DNA of 64,000 nt from a virus (Duplodnaviria; Caudoviricetes), in IMG/VR virus record IMGVR_UViG_3300031949_000018, positions 16,495-80,494 of that record; one strand, written 5' to 3'. Below are positions 2,858 to 24,940 of the stretch, piece by piece (position 1 is the first letter of the stretch; every line of letters starts with the position of its first letter). The notes beneath the pieces were generated by a model. That model saw nothing but the letters and a program-made list of their open reading frames with translations. It was not told where the DNA came from and ran no database searches. Both the position numbers and the translations under genes were made by a program.

Positions 2858-3406
2858 TTATTTTTGGAGCTCTTCGACTGGATTGATTATGTCGAATTCG
2901 ACTCTGGAGTCATCCTGATATAGGTAGCCGCCTTTGCCCTTGCCCTCGACGTCACCTGGGTTGCCGGACGGTTCTTCATTGTTACCTATGGACACCAGCT
3001 GTCCTTCTTCTAGTGCCTTCTTCATGGCGGCGGCCATGTTCGCGTTGTTCTCATTGTATTCGATGCGGTAGGATCTTGGGGCCCGCTCACCGGCATACGT
3101 GAACGACGTGAGGGGATTTATCTTGTCAAGCAATGACGAACCATCCAACTTTCTGGGATTTACCATCCAAAGGAATATGCCGCCCTCGTCAGTCTCAGTC
3201 GGCTCAGCCATCGCCACCCATAAGACGATGCCTGGTTGCAGGATGTCTCGCGTAGGCCATCCCTTGAATGAATCGGTGGAAAACCAGACGGCGGCGGCGA
3301 TGTAGAAGAACAGCGCGATCGACACGGTCTTTATCGCCCATTTCCCGTCGACCCAGTAGAACAGGATCGACATCATGACGGCGTATGCTATGAAGTAGAA
3401 TATCAT
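2858..3406 (-). CDS. Membrane protein (two N-terminal TM segments), third gene of the ExbBD-like cassette
   Basis: Hydrophobic N-terminus; its start overlaps the upstream stop codon. Confidence 0.75.
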   Translation of the reverse strand: MIFYFIAYAVMMSILFYWVDGKWAIKTVSIALFFYIAAAVWFSTDSFKGWPTRDILQPGIVLWVAMAEPTETDEGGIFLWMVNPRKLDGSSLLDKINPLTSFTYAGERAPRSYRIEYNENNANMAAAMKKALEEGQLVSIGNNEEPSGNPGDVEGKGKGGYLYQDDSRVEFDIINPVEELQK

Positions 3407-4050
3407 CAGTGTTGGCTTTCACCCTGTGAGAGGTTGGTCTTCACGAGCTCGATCGCCTCTTCCCAGATCCTGACCGGGTTGCCTGACTGATCTATCGAGA
3501 ACCTAAATGCGTGGGTCTCCTCCCAGGGTTTCTCCATCACTATCTCCTTGAGGTGAACGTCGTTGAACAGAGGGTTTATCTTCGACAGGACGAGCCTCAC
3601 CGGAAGACCGGTCTTCGCGACCATTTGGACACAAGTCGCCCCGACCCTATAGAGGTGGGCGTTGACCACGTATTCACCGGGGACCAGGCTCCTGAGGACC
3701 CAGCGCTCGGTGTTGCTGCGGGTGATGTACGTCTTTCCGTTTATGACTCTAGAGTCGTTGCTCGTTCCGGTATCGTCCCTCTCGAGATGCATGTTGTCGG
3801 CGTCCCTCTGGCGAAACCAAACTATTGTTCCGCTCGGGCCTCTGACCCAGATGTCGACGTCGCAATCTACGTCGTCCGGCCACGTCATCGTTATGATGTA
3901 CTCAGCCTTGGTCTCCACTCCGTCTTTCTTGGCGGTGATGGGGTTTATGAGGACGAGGGCCATCATGAATATCACGAACAGGTTCATCTGTCCACTTATC
4001 AACATGTCGATGAAGCTTGTCCGGGTGTCCCCTCGGTCGAATTGCTTCAT
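3406..4050 (-). CDS. ExbD/TolR/MotB-like single-TM protein with a C-terminal periplasmic beta-rich (YfaP/DUF2135-like) domain
   Basis: TSFIDML followed by a TM helix matches the ExbD/TolR TPLIDV motif with the Asp retained; C-terminal motifs W..DxDxDIWV..P and LERDDTG. Confidence 0.65.
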   Translation of the reverse strand: MKQFDRGDTRTSFIDMLISGQMNLFVIFMMALVLINPITAKKDGVETKAEYIITMTWPDDVDCDVDIWVRGPSGTIVWFRQRDADNMHLERDDTGTSNDSRVINGKTYITRSNTERWVLRSLVPGEYVVNAHLYRVGATCVQMVAKTGLPVRLVLSKINPLFNDVHLKEIVMEKPWEETHAFRFSIDQSGNPVRIWEEAIELVKTNLSQGESQH

Positions 4051-4051
4051 C

Positions 4052-4576
4052 TCAGTCTTGTTCTCTCATGTCTATCGCGTAGTCGGCGATGTAGGTCTCG
4101 AGTGAGAGGATGATCGTCCCGGTGATTCCCGACGCCGTTGCGTAGAGTGCTGCCGCCCAATTCTCACCGACCACCGGGATGAGGGTCGCAAGGATCGAGG
4201 CGTTGGAGAAGTCTTTTCCGACGAAGGCCGCCGCCAACATCGCGATGAACCCGTACGTGGTGCCGGCGAGGCCGAGGTTCAGGAGCTGTGAGGAAGAGAA
4301 CCAACCGAACGTCAGCCGCCGCCGAGACACGGTCAGGAGTCTTTGCGATAGACCCATTCGGATCTCGCTGGAGTTTTTCTCGATGTCTAAACATACGTAG
4401 GCGACAGAGATAGAGGCGATAGAAAACCATCCGAGAATGGTCAGGACGACGTAGAACTTATCGTTTACGTATACGTCGTGGGCGATGCCGTTTTGCCAGA
4501 GCCAGAAAGCCGCGGTGGCCACTAGGGCTTTTATGATCAACCACGATACAAAAGGGCGTCGTCCTACGAGATCCAT
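4052..4576 (-). CDS. MotA/TolQ/ExbB proton-channel family protein
   Basis: LLNLGLAGTTYGFIAML and ALYATASGI match the last two ExbB/TolQ TM helices; likely start is ATG at 4576. Confidence 0.75.
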   Translation of the reverse strand: MDLVGRRPFVSWLIIKALVATAAFWLWQNGIAHDVYVNDKFYVVLTILGWFSIASISVAYVCLDIEKNSSEIRMGLSQRLLTVSRRRLTFGWFSSSQLLNLGLAGTTYGFIAMLAAAFVGKDFSNASILATLIPVVGENWAAALYATASGITGTIILSLETYIADYAIDMREQD

Positions 4577-14200: not shown

Positions 14201-14677
14201 TCATAACCCCACCAAGAGTTCGGCCATGCGCCCTGAGAACGTGCCCGGTTTCACCTCATCATTAACACCGAGCCTCGGTGGGCTTCCATCATACGGGCGC
14301 TCGATGGGGCGCATGGAAGCCATTTTACATCCTTCGAAATCGCAGCCGAGAACTAGCATGGACTCAGTTTTATCGTCGTAGGAGTTCACCTGGCGATGGG
14401 GATCGCGACTCTTTAGTTCACTGGAATCAAAGGCCCTGGTCCACACCTCAGAGATTTGAACGTAGAAGTCGACACTTTTAGTCTTGAACATCTGCCTCAC
14501 CAAGGTGAGTATAATTTGCTTCTCATTCTCATTGCCCCAAGGAGTAACTGTCATTATAATTTCATTATTAGCCGTATGGGCCATGAACATAGAAGTCGTG
14601 CTGCCGTCCTCCTCAAATTGCTTCTTGGCCGTATCAACGGCATAATCAAAAAGTTCTTTCAACGTAGCTTTGGCCAT
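14201..14677 (-). CDS. Hypothetical protein
   Basis: 158-aa ORF with plausible composition. Confidence 0.65.
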   Translation of the reverse strand: MAKATLKELFDYAVDTAKKQFEEDGSTTSMFMAHTANNEIIMTVTPWGNENEKQIILTLVRQMFKTKSVDFYVQISEVWTRAFDSSELKSRDPHRQVNSYDDKTESMLVLGCDFEGCKMASMRPIERPYDGSPPRLGVNDEVKPGTFSGRMAELLVGL

Positions 14678-14692
14678 GATAACAATTTCCTT

Positions 14693-15268
14693 TCAAAACC
14701 CGAAGTTCTTTGTGGGGCGCCTGCATTTTACCTGCCATCCTGAGTTGGTGCCCTCCCGCCCGCAAAACTCGAGAGTGGCCTCTGGGTTCTTAAGCACGAT
14801 TCCCTCGTCGAGGACAGACCCGACGTGTTCCAGACTATCGTAGAGCCCGGTGAGATCCTGGGTATGGCACTTGGCCATCGACACCTTGTCGGTCCACGCC
14901 CCGATCTTCGATAGGGCGTCCTGACGGGCGCCGAACGTGGTTCCAACCAGGTCGTCACCGGTCAGACGGAGTACGTCGAACACATAGGCGGTGTCGCGAA
15001 CGTCGCCACCCTTGGAGTGGAGGAGCTCAAAGACAAAGTACGAATCCGGGAACGACGAGAAGAATCCAGATACTTCTGGGTGCGGGGTCCAAGCCTTGTG
15101 TGCCTCCCCCTGACGGTTCCAGTACTCCACTTTCCGGTCCGCGTCGATGGCGACGACCGAGCACGTTCCATTCTTCTTGATCTGGGCAATCCACTCGCGG
15201 CGCTCGTAGAACTTTATTAGGTCCCGGGCGATCGCCTTCTCTGGTCGAGGTGGATATACGAAGTTCAT
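14693..15268 (-). CDS. Stand-alone ATP-dependent ligase-type nucleotidyltransferase domain
   Basis: Motif I IKKNG, WNRQG, FELL, YVFDVL, EGIVLK and WQVKCR; no OB-fold follows. Confidence 0.75.
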   Translation of the reverse strand: MNFVYPPRPEKAIARDLIKFYERREWIAQIKKNGTCSVVAIDADRKVEYWNRQGEAHKAWTPHPEVSGFFSSFPDSYFVFELLHSKGGDVRDTAYVFDVLRLTGDDLVGTTFGARQDALSKIGAWTDKVSMAKCHTQDLTGLYDSLEHVGSVLDEGIVLKNPEATLEFCGREGTNSGWQVKCRRPTKNFGF

Positions 15269-15576
15269 GGCCGAAGCGCCAGCTCGAACAGGCCGACGTT
15301 GCAGTCGTGGCGCCGACACCAGACTTGGAGTCCCTTCTCGGTGGCGCCGACCTCATTCATTCCCCACTCCTGGGGAGACTTGTCGGGTGGCTTTTCCTTG
15401 AGACACTTCCCACAGTGGAAGTACATCACGATCTCAAGCGCCGCTCTCATATCTGAGTCGAGTGTGAGGATCGGAGTCGGCTTTGGCACGTCGTCGTTAG
15501 ACGCAGACTCCGGAGAAGACTTGGCGCCGTTATTGGATGAGACCAGCTTTAGCTTGGGAGGTTCATTCTTGTCCAT
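15265..15576 (-). CDS. Hypothetical protein with CxxC/CxxH (putative Zn-binding)
   Basis: HCGKC..WCRRHDC. Confidence 0.6.
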   Translation of the reverse strand: MDKNEPPKLKLVSSNNGAKSSPESASNDDVPKPTPILTLDSDMRAALEIVMYFHCGKCLKEKPPDKSPQEWGMNEVGATEKGLQVWCRRHDCNVGLFELALRP

Positions 15577-16450: not shown

Positions 16451-16840
16451 CTAGGAGGTGGCTAAAGTGATAGAACCGCGCCCATCTTCGACGATGCGCT
16501 TGTGTTGCCGCATCTTTCCGATGGCGGCGTTTCCAGTGTTCCAGGCAAAACCTTCCTTCTTGAGGTAGGACTTGATCTGTTGACTGGTCGCCACGGAGTG
16601 TTTCTTCAGGTATTCCGTGATGAGGTGCTCTGAGGACCCATCAGGATGATAGAAGTGCCTCGTGCCCTTGGCCCTGGTAAGTTTCGGTTTTTGGGTCGTA
16701 GATGGCACGGCGACTTCCTTGTCTTCGTTGGCCATGGGTCTCATCGTGACGACGAATCCCTCGGCTATAAGTTGGTTCATCTGACCCATCAACTTCGGAT
16801 CAGTGAGACTTCCTTTGACGATAAATGCAACTTTGGTCAT
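16451..16840 (-). CDS. Hypothetical protein, possible C-terminal winged helix
   Basis: 129-aa ORF with a basic helical C-terminus. Confidence 0.6.
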   Translation of the reverse strand: MTKVAFIVKGSLTDPKLMGQMNQLIAEGFVVTMRPMANEDKEVAVPSTTQKPKLTRAKGTRHFYHPDGSSEHLITEYLKKHSVATSQQIKSYLKKEGFAWNTGNAAIGKMRQHKRIVEDGRGSITLATS

Positions 16841-18203: not shown

Positions 18204-18232
18204 ACTATATCACAATCCTGGCCAGATGTAAA
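18204..18232 (-). promoter_or_regulatory. Early sigma70-type promoter
   Basis: TTTACA-N17(..TGTGA)-TATAGT. Confidence 0.7.
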
Positions 18233-18268: not shown

Positions 18269-18937
18269 TTACCAGAGGAGATCGAAATAGCCCTGCATTA
18301 CCTTAGAAGCCCTGGCGCGACGGCCATTCCGGTGATCCTCTACGGCGTCGTCGCGAAACCGGTATGTCCTGACCTTGTCGCCCCTCATCCCAGATCCGAC
18401 CTGGGCACTCCTCACCTCATTGGACGCGGTGTTCGCCTCCCTCGACGCCATGTCGTGAAGACGGCGGCGCAGCTCGGTCGTGGCCTCGGCGACGTTCGCC
18501 TCCTTGCTGCGTGACTGAACGGTGACGACTATGTTGGTGGGGGTGTGCGTCATTCTAACCGAGCACTGCTTCTTGTTGCGGTGCTGGCCTCCGGCGCCCG
18601 TCCCAGAGAAGAACTCGACGCGGACATCCTCGGGTCGATACTGAAACTGGACAGACGACGCCTTGACCACCGCCACGGTAACGGTGGAGGTATGGGCCCT
18701 TCCAGATCTCTCGCTGTCTGGGATCCTCTGGATGCGATGGCCGCCAGCCTCGAACTCTATGCGGGGATCTGCGTCTATGATGGTGGACCAATAACCTGGA
18801 CGGCGCTCGGAGCGCTGGCACTCTCAGCCGAATCGGGTGAACATCCTCGAGTAGGCGTCGGCCAACTCAGCCACGAACGCCTTGCTGTCGTCGCCACCCT
18901 CGGCGGCTCGTATCTCGATGGAATATCTCGTCCTCAT
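18269..18937 (-). CDS. Class I peptide chain release factor homolog (RF1-like, lacking domain 1) with an in-frame UGA at codon 38
   Basis: AGGAG SD then ATG at 18937: MRTRYSIEIRAAEGGDDSKAFVAELADAYSRMFTRFG*ECQ...EAGGHRIQRIPDSERSGRAHTSTVTVAV...GAGGQHRNK...RGDKVRTYRF...TAA. The TGA is at 18824-18826 and both halves are in one frame. Confidence 0.85.
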
Positions 18938-18953
18938 GGCCACTCCTAGAAAT

Positions 18954-19027
18954 TGGCAGGTGATGGGGGAATCGAACCCGCATATTCCGTTTTGGAGACG
19001 GACGCTCTACCATTGAGCTAAACACCT
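18954..19027 (-). tRNA. tRNA-Trp(CCA)
   Basis: Cloverleaf with anticodon arm TCCGT-CTCCAAA-ACGGA, T-loop TTCGATT, G73 and encoded CCA; U6:U67 and C50:C64 mismatches. Confidence 0.92.
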
Positions 19028-19555: not shown

Positions 19556-19765
19556 TCACCAGATGTCTGCACATGCTATTCTCCTCCTCATTCCTCCGTG
19601 CGCGGTCTTCATCATGATCACCGCGTATGACTGAGTGCGCGGCAGGTATATGATCTTTCGGTGCCACGACGCATGCCGGATTGGATTCGGGTCGTGCGCC
19701 TCATCCACTTCCCATCCGTCCCCTCCGGGCGAATAGGTTTCATTTTTTAAAGTGAACCCGTACAT
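19556..19765 (-). CDS. Hypothetical protein
   Basis: ORF within the tRNA-array insert. Confidence 0.5.
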   Translation of the reverse strand: MYGFTLKNETYSPGGDGWEVDEAHDPNPIRHASWHRKIIYLPRTQSYAVIMMKTAHGGMRRRIACADIW

Positions 19766-20057
19766 GGGTGGTCCCGTCCTGCTGTGTCTTCGTCATCGTC
19801 GTCACGTCCTTAATCCACTTTGCCTGAGGGTGATACTTGCAGAAGAAGGTGTTCGGAAACTTACTCTTTCCAAAGACGGCGATCACCGGATTCTTCTTAT
19901 CGATGACCGTATGGAAGTACAGAGAACCCGGGTTTCTCAGCCCTTTCTCCAGTAATTCGAAGCACTCATTCTCTGTGTTCATGATGAGTTCATCCCTGGG
20001 CTTTTTGGTTTCCCAAATGAAATTCACCCTGGCTCGGTCGTATGGGTTGTTCCACAT
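19740..20057 (-). CDS. Hypothetical protein, paralog of the adjacent ORF
   Basis: Shares MWNNPYDRARV and CxYHP with 20057..20299. Confidence 0.6.
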   Translation of the reverse strand: MWNNPYDRARVNFIWETKKPRDELIMNTENECFELLEKGLRNPGSLYFHTVIDKKNPVIAVFGKSKFPNTFFCKYHPQAKWIKDVTTMTKTQQDGTTHVRVHFKK

Positions 20058-20293
20058 TACGGATGGTACTCACAGATGAAGATTTGTTCTCCTGATCGTA
20101 CATGTCGTTCTCGGGGAAACGACATGCGCATCGTTATGCGTCTGTCATACATGGTCACGCTGACGACTACGCCGGTGGTGTCGGCTATCTTCTGCATCAT
20201 CTTATCTTCGGCTCCCATTTTAAGTTCATACGGAGGTTGCATAGTCCTCCATAGGAAGGTCACCCTGGCTCGGTCGTATGGGTTGTTCCACAT
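20024..20293. repeat. Identical 34-nt direct repeat (20024-20057 and 20260-20293)
   Basis: TCACCCTGGCTCGGTCGTATGGGTTGTTCCACAT occurs twice and encodes the shared N-termini. Confidence 0.9.
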
Positions 20294-20299
20294 GTTCAT
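20057..20299 (-). CDS. Hypothetical protein, paralog of the adjacent ORF
   Basis: MWNNPYDRARV...ICEYHP. Confidence 0.6.
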   Translation of the reverse strand: MNMWNNPYDRARVTFLWRTMQPPYELKMGAEDKMMQKIADTTGVVVSVTMYDRRITMRMSFPRERHVRSGEQIFICEYHP

Positions 20300-20534: not shown

Positions 20535-21083
20535 TTACGCGTACTTCCTACGCCTCTTTAGCTTGGCGGCACTGAGGTGCCGTATCTTCCTGTCCTGAGA
20601 CTCAGACCGCTGACGGATCTCCGCGAAGCGATCGGCGCAGAACGTCGCGGCCGGGCTATTCGGCTTGACCATCGGGATCACGTTGCAAGTCCCGGTGATG
20701 TAGCCGATGGCCTCCTTGATGACGATGTTCGAACCCGCTGACTTGTCGGAGTTGATGTCGAGGTGAACCTCGCTGTGTCGATCCCCGAGTGCGTCGGCGA
20801 TGCGCAGGTACATGTCCGCGATCTTGTAGACCTCGTTCATGAGTCGCATCGTCGGCCTGTTCTTGACCTGGTCGAAGTCCCTCTCGCGAGTGACCTCACC
20901 GAATATCTTGCATCCGCGGCAGCCGTCGTAGTGAACGACGACGCAGATGGCGTAGTCAGCGACCCACTGGCCCCCGACCTTGTGGCGCTCGCTGTCGCCG
21001 CCGACGTAGATCTTCGTCTCGGCGCTCTGGGCGCTAATGAAGGCCTTCACGGCCTCTATGTCCATCTTCCGTCTAAAGTCCAT
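20535..21083 (-). CDS. RNase H-like protein (DUF458/YkuK-like)
   Basis: KIYVGGDS..VVVH..RLMNEV..EVHLDIN..VKP.S.AA..CAD. Confidence 0.75.
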   Translation of the reverse strand: MDFRRKMDIEAVKAFISAQSAETKIYVGGDSERHKVGGQWVADYAICVVVHYDGCRGCKIFGEVTRERDFDQVKNRPTMRLMNEVYKIADMYLRIADALGDRHSEVHLDINSDKSAGSNIVIKEAIGYITGTCNVIPMVKPNSPAATFCADRFAEIRQRSESQDRKIRHLSAAKLKRRRKYA

Positions 21084-21538: not shown

Positions 21539-21619
21539 TGGCGCGCACGACAGGACTCGAACCTGCATCTGCCTCCAATTACCTCACTCAGGCTTCGCAA
21601 GCCTGGGGGTTACGTGCGC
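21539..21619 (-). tRNA. D-armless tRNA-Arg(GCG)-like gene with a 22-nt variable region
   Basis: Acceptor GCGCACG/CGTGCGC, 7-nt linker TAACCCC, CAGGC-TTGCGAA-GCCTG, T-arm GCAGG-TTCGAGT-CCTGT, G73-CCA. Confidence 0.75.
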
Positions 21620-22592: not shown

Positions 22593-22835
22593 CTATTTTA
22601 TTATGTCTGTCGGTAGCTTGACGTACGGCCCCGTGACCTTGACCGCGTTGCGACGGGCCATCTCTATGAGGATCCTGATGTCAGACCCCACTATGTGGTA
22701 GTGCCAGTCGTCCCTAACCGCGTGGTTCCACATCCACTCTAGCCACTCCGACGAACCCGGCGTTGGTGGTTCAGCGTTATATTCGCGATCGACTTTTTTC
22801 GCCTTCACGAGTTCGTATCCAAAATCCTCAGCCAT
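22593..22835 (-). CDS. Hypothetical protein
   Basis: ORF coupled to the upstream MazG-like gene. Confidence 0.6.
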   Translation of the reverse strand: MAEDFGYELVKAKKVDREYNAEPPTPGSSEWLEWMWNHAVRDDWHYHIVGSDIRILIEMARRNAVKVTGPYVKLPTDIIK

Positions 22836-23244
22836 CTATTTTCCTTCCTGGCAGGGTGCCGTGATTTCCCGTGTGACTAGGCGCCTGCCAGTCGGCAGGT
22901 TTAACGAGATCGGGCAGCCCTAGTGGGTTAGGTCTCGATTCCTTAACGCCGAGCTGCTTATTCATATTCGCTGCATGAACCCGATCCCAGGCCTTCTCCG
23001 AATCGATACCGAAGAGATCTAGTGTCCCGATCGCGACTACACAGATATCGATGAGTGCGTCTACCACCTCCTCGGCGTCTTTGTCCTCGACGGCGTCGCC
23101 CATTTCATTCAACTCCTCGAATATGAAGTTGAGTCGAAACTCAAGGAGCATTTGCTTCTTCTCGTCGTCAAAGTCTGCAACCTTCTCGTGAAAGCCGTAG
23201 TGGACGTGCATGTCGTGAATGTCTTTTACCCAGTCCGTCGTCAT
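22828..23244 (-). CDS. MazG-like NTP pyrophosphohydrolase (candidate dCTPase or pool sanitiser)
   Basis: FIFEELNEM..EEVVDALID..VHAANMNK..LVKP.DW.AP. Confidence 0.8.
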   Translation of the reverse strand: MTTDWVKDIHDMHVHYGFHEKVADFDDEKKQMLLEFRLNFIFEELNEMGDAVEDKDAEEVVDALIDICVVAIGTLDLFGIDSEKAWDRVHAANMNKQLGVKESRPNPLGLPDLVKPADWQAPSHTGNHGTLPGRKIDG

Positions 23245-23870
23245 CTCTTCGCTATTCCTTTCATTTTCTCGCCGGCCTTGTCGTTGGCCTCGCGCACCTT
23301 GTTCTCGATGCTCAGCTGGGCCTCCGCCGCGGAGATCATGTCCACCATCTCTGGTTGAAACTTTATCCTAACGCCTCCGTCGAGCGCCACGATCTTCGCC
23401 CACTTCTTCTTGGCGAAGCTCCTTTTCAATCCCTCTTGTTTCCCGATGATGGTTATTCCATCGAGGTGGTCTATTTCGTGCTGCATAACTCGAGAGGTGA
23501 AATCGCTGAACTGCTTCGTCATCGTCGACCCGTTAGGAAGGGTATACCTGAGCCTGATGATGCGGTGTCTCTTTATCTTCAGGAAGAGCCCTGGGAATGT
23601 TAGGCATCCCTCGACGAGTTCAGTCGTGGCCTCGGACGACGATACGATCTTCGGGTTGTAGAACACCCCGCACGGGTCGGATGCCACCGAGAACACCCTG
23701 TATGGTATTCCGACCTGCGGTCCCGAGAGGCCTAGGCCTCTCCTGGCCAGCATGGTCTCCACCAGGTTGTTGGCGAACTCTATCGGGTCAAACGGAGGAT
23801 GGGCGAAGTCGAAGCCCTGGGCCGCCCGGTAGAGTACTGGATCCGAGTGCGTGACGAGGTCCAGGATCAC
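23241..23870 (-). CDS. def: Peptide deformylase
   Basis: GLGLSGPQVG, EGCLT and QHEIDHLDG. Confidence 0.93.
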   Translation of the reverse strand: MILDLVTHSDPVLYRAAQGFDFAHPPFDPIEFANNLVETMLARRGLGLSGPQVGIPYRVFSVASDPCGVFYNPKIVSSSEATTELVEGCLTFPGLFLKIKRHRIIRLRYTLPNGSTMTKQFSDFTSRVMQHEIDHLDGITIIGKQEGLKRSFAKKKWAKIVALDGGVRIKFQPEMVDMISAAEAQLSIENKVREANDKAGEKMKGIAKR

Positions 23871-24125: not shown

Positions 24126-24440
24126 TTAGTCTTGATATGAATCGTATAGAAGATCGTAGGTCATCTCGAAGACGTCTGGGCTACACGGATAGTACTCCGC
24201 CTTCACCCCTCTTATTATCCAGTCGCCCTGGACGGCGGTCTGAGTGCCTGAGGACGTCTCGATCTCTAGGTCATTTATACCCGCCGTGGAGGGCATCTTT
24301 AGGTGGCCGTCGCTCATCATGGCCTCTGCTATGGTCGCGTAGGTCTCGTTCTCTCCGTCCCATAGGATGGCCTTGACGATGACGGGCTTCTTGACGTAGT
24401 TCAGGAACATCATTCTCTCCTTATCGCGGCGACCAGGCAC
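24126..24440 (-). CDS. Conserved phage protein (PGDYG-like)
   Basis: YVKKPVIVKA..GDWIIRGVKAEYYPCSPDVFEMTY. Confidence 0.7.
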   Translation of the reverse strand: MPGRRDKERMMFLNYVKKPVIVKAILWDGENETYATIAEAMMSDGHLKMPSTAGINDLEIETSSGTQTAVQGDWIIRGVKAEYYPCSPDVFEMTYDLLYDSYQD

Positions 24441-24940
24441 CTGGCCTGGTGCTTAGAGTCGTCCAAGGCCGAGTGATACGTGCCCTGTCTCCCCACAGAG
24501 TCAGCGTCGAACCCAAGGACGTGGTACGCGGTTCGAGTGTCTCGGCACTCCCTAAAGTTCCACGGGGGTTTCTTCCCGAGGAATTCATAGGCCGTCGTTA
24601 GGATGGGAAAGTCGAACGCGGCGCCCTGGCACCATATCGTCTTGGCGCCCGTCTGGTGCCACCACCTGGATAGCTGATCGAGGGCATCTGGCAATGGTTT
24701 CTGGTCAACCTCGACGGCGTCTCTGGCGGCCTGTGACTGCTTCGTCCACCATTCCTCCACTCTCTTCTCGACGACTAGGCCCGCTTCCTCGCAGGAGGAC
24801 CTGGTGACGTTGGAATAGAACTCGTGCTTGAATTCTAGGGGACCGGAGGAGAAGGGATTGAACGACGCGGCCCCGATCGACCTTATGACCGACCAGGGCC
24901 TGACGCCAAGCGTCTCAATATCAATCATCACGTGAAGCAT
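24410..24940 (-). CDS. DEDDh 3'-5' exonuclease/exoribonuclease
   Basis: MIDIETLG..FDFPIL..RDTRT..HSALDD. Confidence 0.85.
   Translation of the reverse strand: MLHVMIDIETLGVRPWSVIRSIGAASFNPFSSGPLEFKHEFYSNVTRSSCEEAGLVVEKRVEEWWTKQSQAARDAVEVDQKPLPDALDQLSRWWHQTGAKTIWCQGAAFDFPILTTAYEFLGKKPPWNFRECRDTRTAYHVLGFDADSVGRQGTYHSALDDSKHQARCLVAAIRRE

Follow-up and report, generated by a model that had tools for sequence, protein, structure and literature searches.

Our analysis indicates that a phage release factor (RF) of the RF1 type, made up of domains 2–4, is probably synthesized under the control of programmed readthrough at a UGA in codon 38 of its own gene. The gene lies in a 64,000-nucleotide stretch of the IMG/VR virus record IMGVR_UViG_3300031949_000018 (positions 16,495 to 80,494 of that record), which is referred to below as the window. 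The recoding site is genuine: it is conserved and shows selection, in a phage that otherwise uses UGA as a stop. The residue inserted at the UGA is probably Trp, and the quantity that is sensed appears to be RF2. From the resulting factor, the phage's own translation module would gain extra capacity for termination at UAA/UAG or for rescue. A readthrough switch of this kind had been suggested from the sequence of the window. The conserved, selected gate at the Trp site of RF1 bears that suggestion out, but two features thought to assist readthrough, an adjacent tRNA-Trp and a hairpin after the UGA, do not.

Results

Organization of the locus

The RF gene stands at the end of a tRNA array, near genes for peptide deformylase and MazG, and all the features described here are on the minus strand. 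It is preceded by a gene for tRNA-Trp(CCA) with an encoded CCA end (18954–19027). ARAGORN detects this tRNA, and it is the top-scoring tRNA of the array in Rfam (RF00005, 62.9 bits). Its fold has a 5-bp anticodon stem, a GCUC/GAGC D stem that gives the pair C11:G24, and U6·U67 and C50·C64 mismatches. A spacer of 16 nt (18938–18953) separates the 3' end of the tRNA from the start codon and contains the Shine-Dalgarno (SD) sequence AGGAG (18947–18943). From the ATG at 18937, codons 1–37 (18827–18937) encode the first strand and helix of RF1 domain 2, starting IEIRAAEGGDDSKAF. An in-frame TGA follows at codon 38 (18824–18826) in the context GGC TGA G, or RFG*ECQR in the protein, and a 5-bp hairpin, GCGCU-CCG-AGCGC (18803–18815), begins 8 nt 3' of it. 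Codons 39–222 (18272–18823) complete domain 2, which includes the recognition loop PDS (18721–18713), and encode domain 3, with GGQ at residues 116–118 (18592–18584), and domain 4. The gene ends with TAA (18269–18271), which is the terminal stop in most relatives too.

When the TGA of codon 38 is read as Trp, the frame is unchanged down to the TAA and the product has 222 residues. The first in-frame start after the TGA is at codon 88. The layout of the locus given in the original prediction is confirmed: ARAGORN and Rfam agree on the tRNA-Trp(CCA) 16 nt upstream of the ATG on the same strand, and reading of the sequence gives the same SD, ATG, internal TGA, terminal TAA and length. Table-11 ORF lists split the gene into a 39-aa piece and a 135-aa 3' piece, in keeping with the observation that the ORF track displayed the 3' half only. 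A promoter scan found none between the tRNAs and the RF gene, where the 16-nt spacer is too short to hold one. A promoter-like site 3' of the RF gene (TTTACA-17-TATAGT with TG, 18204–18232), identified by consensus match only, is likely to mark the 3' boundary of the tRNA/RF transcription unit.

Genetic code and phage context

The phage is a T4-like myovirus with a Gp23 capsid protein, portal, sheath, TerL, UvsW and PolB. Among 71 non-overlapping minus-strand ORFs, which cover 82% of the window under table 11, 28 end with TGA, 24 with TAA and 19 with TAG, and TGA is therefore the commonest ordinary stop. No tRNA with a UCA anticodon is present among the 15 ARAGORN tRNAs and one more Rfam match in the 80.5-kb record. 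A code-4 or otherwise stop-recoded phage was rejected on these two grounds, the 28 of 71 ORFs ending with TGA and the lack of a suppressor tRNA(UCA).

A MazG-like pyrophosphatase, a peptide deformylase and an Rv2179c-like 3'-5' exoribonuclease adjoin the tRNA array (22828–23870 and 24410–24940, minus strand) and form a translation/RNA module with it. A tRNA-like gene missed by ARAGORN lies at 21542–21619 (minus strand); it scores 35.5 bits with the Rfam tRNA model and has the anticodon GCG, an almost absent D arm and a long insertion after the anticodon arm. Two adjacent paralogous ORFs of 105 aa (19740–20057) and 80 aa (20057–20299), both on the minus strand, are interleaved with the tRNA genes. 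They share the start motif MWNNPYDRARV. The 80-aa ORF starts MNMWNNPYDRARV, and the 105-aa ORF has no match in Pfam. A ligase-like ORF of ~190 aa (14693–15319, minus strand) contains a nucleotidyltransferase domain only (PF01068, E = 2.4e-7). Together with 14201–14677 it was considered as a second TGA-joined gene and rejected. The second ORF starts at an ATG of its own shortly (a few codons) past the stop, and no domain crosses the junction, so the pair was judged to be two genes.

The encoded factor

The Pfam PCRF domain (PF03462, residues 6–88, E = 2.8e-16) spans the codon-38 stop and is followed by the RF-1 domain (PF00472, residues 96–203, E = 1.3e-22). NCBIfam models rank the product as RF1 (prfA, 188 bits), RF2 (prfB, 107 bits) and PrfH (52 bits), with every score below its cut-off. 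The RF1 profile (NF001859/TIGR00019) has a cut-off of 400 bits and is matched at positions 107–332 of 347 only. RF1 domain 1, of ~105 N-terminal residues, is absent, and no upstream coding is possible with the ATG 16 nt after the tRNA. Comparison with sequences of solved structures gave the same order (RF1 E = 2e-37, RF2 1e-23, PDB PrfH 3e-7). In this alignment the TGA of codon 38 falls on a Trp of E. coli RF1 ('arrW'), as expected from the earlier proposal that the UGA occupies a Trp-type position.

An AlphaFold (AF2) model with Trp at residue 38 reached a pLDDT of 88, and the readthrough product is predicted to fold as complete RF1 domains 2–4. The best Foldseek matches of the model are ribosome-bound RF1 chains (TM 0.85–0.88). 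In the model the first 37 residues form the first strand and helix of domain 2. The product is thus best described, on its profiles and predicted fold, as an RF1-type factor without domain 1, which is the class first suggested for it. A resemblance to PrfH does not extend beyond size. TIGR03072 gave 51.6 bits against a cut-off of 166.65, through the GGQ domain only, and the 49%-complete record contains no RtcB; the assignment to PrfH was rejected.

The recognition loop carries P-D-S in place of the family consensus PPT, and its Ser retains a hydroxyl. Other members of the window's clade also depart from PPT, with PAN in the nearest relative (locus L002) and PSG, PKN and PRN in the nearest proteins. 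The codon specificity of the window's factor may therefore differ from that of the family. The RF1-type sequence predicts reading of UAA and UAG by the short factor, with a specificity made uncertain by the PDS loop.

Conservation of the internal UGA

A protein search found a large family of relatives of ~222 aa with 45–55% identity, and DNA was retrieved for 80 IMG/VR loci and 80 metagenome loci (44–58% identity). All 160 loci have exactly one internal stop, which is always TGA and always at the aligned codon 38. Among 74 unique genes the synonymous sites are saturated (pS about 0.78) and the TGA is still invariant. In 58 unsaturated pairs, dN/dS was 0.08 upstream of the TGA and 0.14 downstream, which indicates that both parts are translated in this frame. 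The stop is thus a conserved and selected gate, neither a mutation nor a read error. Homologs with TGG at this codon and a neutrally evolving downstream half had been named as outcomes that would speak against a gate, and neither was found.

In 154 genes the gate is followed by A, C or G and not once by T, whereas 9 of the 28 ordinary TGA stops of the window have T next to them. In the window's own gate this base is G. SD sequences are strong throughout the family, so low output is not set at initiation. In databases the gene appears as pieces of 35 aa and ~166 aa on long contigs, and a 'whole' protein containing W is found only on contigs of ~1 kb; such entries look like code-4 gene calls, not TGG alleles. 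There is no close relative in the records of cultured phages, where the best match has 38% identity.

Two loci carry additional copies. A 3.9-kb metagenome contig (L115) has two TGA-gate contexts (1036–1110 and 3007–3081), which suggests two gated gene copies ~2 kb apart. In Pararhizobium sp. BT-229 (L164, 2501–4594), one UGA-gated short RF is followed within 2 kb by two more matches to the GGQ half (query 117–222, 42–43% identity), an arrangement suggestive of RF-like genes in tandem.

Bacterial copies and the sister clade

UGA-gated copies also occur in bacterial assemblies of Alphaproteobacteria, namely Pararhizobium, Thalassospira, Kiloniella, Jiella, Gemmobacter and Sphingomonas, and the Gemmobacter copy is situated in a tRNA array. 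Cultured strains with such copies in their assemblies include Gemmobacter caeni DSM 21823, Thalassospira xianhensis MCCC 1A02616, Pararhizobium sp. BT-229 and Jiella sp. LLJ827. In a second deep clade, mostly from Myxococcota, the gene is read in two frames. The junctions of this sister clade consist of an SD-like GGAGG or GGGGG, 3 nt, CTT TGA C and then the +1 frame, an arrangement that corresponds to the RF2-sensing cassette of prfB in the same region of the protein. Some members of the second clade instead have an in-frame TGA beside the other Trp of the window's protein (W50), or at a further site. A maximum-likelihood tree separated the codon-38 type from the rest with 100/100 support, placed the window's copy on a long branch and showed frameshift and readthrough gates intermixed in the second clade. 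The prfB cassette is confined to the sister clade; in the window, frame 0 continues through GGC TGA G.

The gate is always UGA and always early, yet it has several constructions. We take this as our strongest reason to think that a codon read by RF2 is what matters, and it leads us to prefer a mechanism based on competition between RF2 and Trp-tRNA. The occurrence of the exact prfB cassette at the same place likewise agrees with the proposed role of the UGA as the sensing codon.

The tRNA-Trp gene, the hairpin and readthrough

A role of the phage tRNA-Trp was part of the original prediction, and its adjacency to the RF gene was to be sought in relatives. It is not a family feature. The gene sits in a tRNA array in 57 of 81 loci, and about 6 of the 81 have a tRNA-Trp within 3 kb. 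Other tRNAs take its place: four other loci have a tRNA for Leu, Asp, Ser or Ala 17–21 nt upstream. In L002, the nearest relative (58% identity), Ser-Ser-Trp tRNAs stand on the opposite side of the RF gene. In that locus a gene for an RNaseH-like protein (PF04308, phrog_11311; 3669–4211) comes directly after the RF gene, and it has 69% identity to a gene at 20535–21083 (minus strand) in the window. The RF gene, the RNaseH-like gene and the Ser/Ser/Trp tRNAs thus make up a rearranged module common to the window and L002.

The structure of the window's tRNA-Trp gives the proposed role no support either. The tRNA does not have the Hirsh-like A24 in the D arm, where the pair is C11:G24. Its ordinary 5-bp anticodon stem also differs from the UGA-reading type with a 4-bp stem (PMC13092985).

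The hairpin that had been pointed out after the UGA is present (GCGCU/AGCGC, 18815–18803), but it is no more stable than dinucleotide shuffles of the sequence (z = +0.5; 143 of 200 fold at least as well). RNAalifold found no common structure in 133 TGA contexts. The largest clade has a stem-loop that begins at or next to the UGA, where 59.5% of cells are paired as compared with about 30% for slid controls; this stem was derived from the clade's own sequences and has no bearing on the window. The minimum free energy in sliding windows dips after the TGA, and equally deep dips occur elsewhere in the gene. With G as the +4 base and a hairpin that is not significant, nothing in the window's copy visibly boosts readthrough.

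Neighbouring genes

In many relatives the next gene downstream codes for a phosphatase of the DSP/PTP-like type (71 loci) or for a phosphoesterase of the calcineurin-like type (38 loci), and a PNK-like P-loop kinase is found beside the short RF in 15 loci. An ORF of about 76 aa belonging to no known family lies directly upstream in 84 loci. Examples and clusters of these conserved neighbours are L072:3621–4235, L150:3338–3976 and L150:679–1440. The phosphatase, phosphoesterase and kinase genes hint at RNA end-healing and rescue. None of these enzymes flanks the window's copy. A check of the record for phosphoesterase-like or PNK-like neighbours gave a weak match to a gp47/Mre11-like nuclease only and no PNK, and RtcB did not turn up in the 80.5-kb record (49% complete).

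Discussion

Our data are best explained by readthrough of the codon-38 UGA in competition with RF2. The RF gene is probably co-transcribed with the tRNA array and would be released by 3' processing of the tRNA. Initiation at the strong SD and ATG would be efficient, and host RF2 would halt most ribosomes at the UGA, releasing a useless 37-residue peptide. A minority of ribosomes would accept the near-cognate Trp-tRNA(CCA), insert the native Trp and complete the 222-aa factor. Insertion of Trp by a near-cognate Trp-tRNA appears to be the most economical reading of the site. Because the two would compete for the A site, output should scale with Trp-tRNA versus RF2. It would increase when RF2 activity drops or when Trp-tRNA rises, and a phage tRNA-Trp gene lies immediately upstream. 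The benefit to the phage is a matter of conjecture: an RF1-type factor placed behind a codon of RF2 makes no obvious feedback loop. The sequence data would also be compatible with a steady leak at a low level.

Such a leak is the essence of a fixed attenuator, in which the UGA only holds a potentially toxic RF at a low level, at a few per cent of initiations, and nothing is sensed. Strong SDs combined with an early stop would yield a low and constant amount of product, and no stimulatory RNA structure is conserved across the family. However, a weak ribosome binding site does the same and is easier to evolve. The gate has instead been retained over deep divergence and re-invented at other codons and as an RF2-sensing frameshift cassette, and T is avoided at the +4 position. 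We therefore consider an attenuator improbable. Autoregulation like that of prfB has a somewhat better chance and is still unlikely. Here the short factor itself would read UGA, being omnipotent, RF2-like or codon-independent, and would terminate its own mRNA at codon 38 and keep its level constant. Readthrough and frameshift gates alike invariably use UGA, with no case of UAG or UAA, and this is consistent with prfB logic, in which the product reads the gate. The third residue of the recognition loop is also variable (T, N, S or G): the window has PDS, and two loci (L043 and L137) have SPT, which in the tripeptide swaps of Ito and colleagues (2000) was reportedly an omnipotent combination. 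On the other hand, the product matches RF1 better than RF2 both in E-value and in bit score. As in RF1, the loop has Pro in its first position and Gln70 is invariant, and most members of the family have PPT.

The remaining explanations have little left to recommend them. If the gene did not work, through a nonsense mutation or an assembly error, or if it came from a code-4 phage or encoded two polypeptides, its splitting by gene callers and the divergent PDS loop and long branch of the window's copy would be accounted for. We regard this as very improbable, since TGA is found in 160 of 160 loci with purifying selection on both sides and is the commonest ordinary stop in the phage. Two polypeptides would require a start that does not come until codon 88, and the N-terminal 37 residues belong to one domain with what follows; a split or internally initiated product is accordingly unlikely. 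The least probable proposal, with hardly any chance, is that the UGA is a selenocysteine codon, which an in-frame UGA and the stem-loop of the largest clade at or next to it might suggest. The site is a structural Trp in RF1, and no Cys occurs there in 240 loci, whereas selenocysteine families usually have Cys homologues. No structure is shared by the family and none is significant in the window, and other clades move the UGA elsewhere or use a frameshift. Selenocysteine, a split protein and a pseudogene were all rejected on this evidence, and a non-working gene is largely refuted by the conservation of the codon, dN/dS and stop usage.

Competition between RF2 and Trp-tRNA at the UGA, the reading we prefer, has parallels in known systems. 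Bacterial prfB (RF2) is also a class-I RF gene with an early in-frame UGA, in which the frequency of bypass sets the amount of factor. Unlike prfB, the window's gene stays in frame, is of the RF1 type, has no domain 1 and is carried by a phage, and its gate codon is not the one that the product is predicted to read. According to the review of Atkins (2016), no bacterial RF gene with an early UGA and a same-frame ORF2 is known (PMC5009743). The closest precedent is the RF gene of Mimivirus (R726) and Megavirus (mg280), which needs UGA readthrough; a viral tRNA-Trp is proposed to read the codon and to insert Trp (PMC3521657). That factor is of the eRF1 type and also needs a frameshift, and the D arm of the viral tRNA-Trp contains a Hirsh-like A (PMC3521657). 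In contrast to the system of Jeudy et al. (2012), the phage factor is of the bacterial RF1 type and has one gate, and the tRNA-Trp has C11:G24. The phage protein shares with canonical RF1 (prfA) the PCRF and RF-1 domains, GGQ, the loop context Q..P..E, HTS and the fold. It differs in the missing domain 1, in its score (188 bits against the cut-off of 400), in having PDS rather than PxT and in the internal UGA.

Phage RF1 and RF2 genes within translation or tRNA modules have been reported by Borges et al. (10.1101/2021.08.26.457843) and Al-Shayeb (2020; PMC7162821), and these papers make a conceptual link between RF1 and states with UGA reading as Trp. The RF genes that they describe in recoded and huge phages are in the standard code with no mention of an internal stop, and suppressor tRNAs and genome-wide recoding are involved. 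This phage, by contrast, is not recoded and has no suppressor tRNA. A UGA-gated short phage RF is not described in reviews of recoding and RF evolution or in the papers on huge and recoded phages.

PrfH (RFH), of the PrfH-RtcB2 ribosome repair system, is a class-I RF paralogue of similar size that also lacks domain 1, and many members of the present family lie beside enzymes of the RNA-end-processing type (phosphatase, phosphoesterase and PNK-like kinase). It is conceivable, though rather doubtful, that the short factor is a phage ribosome-rescue or backup RF that also acts on UGA-stalled or blocked ribosomes and that is sensor-controlled and self-limiting through its own UGA. With the phage tRNA array and the RNA-end-healing-type enzymes found beside it in many relatives, it would then form a counter-defence module against attacks by the host on tRNA, rRNA or RF2. 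If true, such a module would be a phage analogue of PrfH-RtcB.

The textbooks describe how the bacterial RF2 gene is gated by a signal of its own kind, and to our knowledge the gating of an RF gene has been shown once in viruses, in Mimivirus. Here, hundreds of phage and prophage loci follow the same gating logic, which uses several codons and at least two mechanisms, in-frame UGA readthrough and +1 frameshift. These repeated forms of the gate argue that termination capacity is monitored or tuned by phages in the course of infection. The family would also provide a natural, conserved bacterial example of UGA-to-Trp readthrough for dissection. The gate explains a systematic misannotation of these genes, either as pieces of 35 aa and ~166 aa or as proteins 'rescued' by wrong code-4 calls. 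The RF1 factors without domain 1 form an unstudied class, and they may matter in phage takeover, ribosome rescue and counter-defence.
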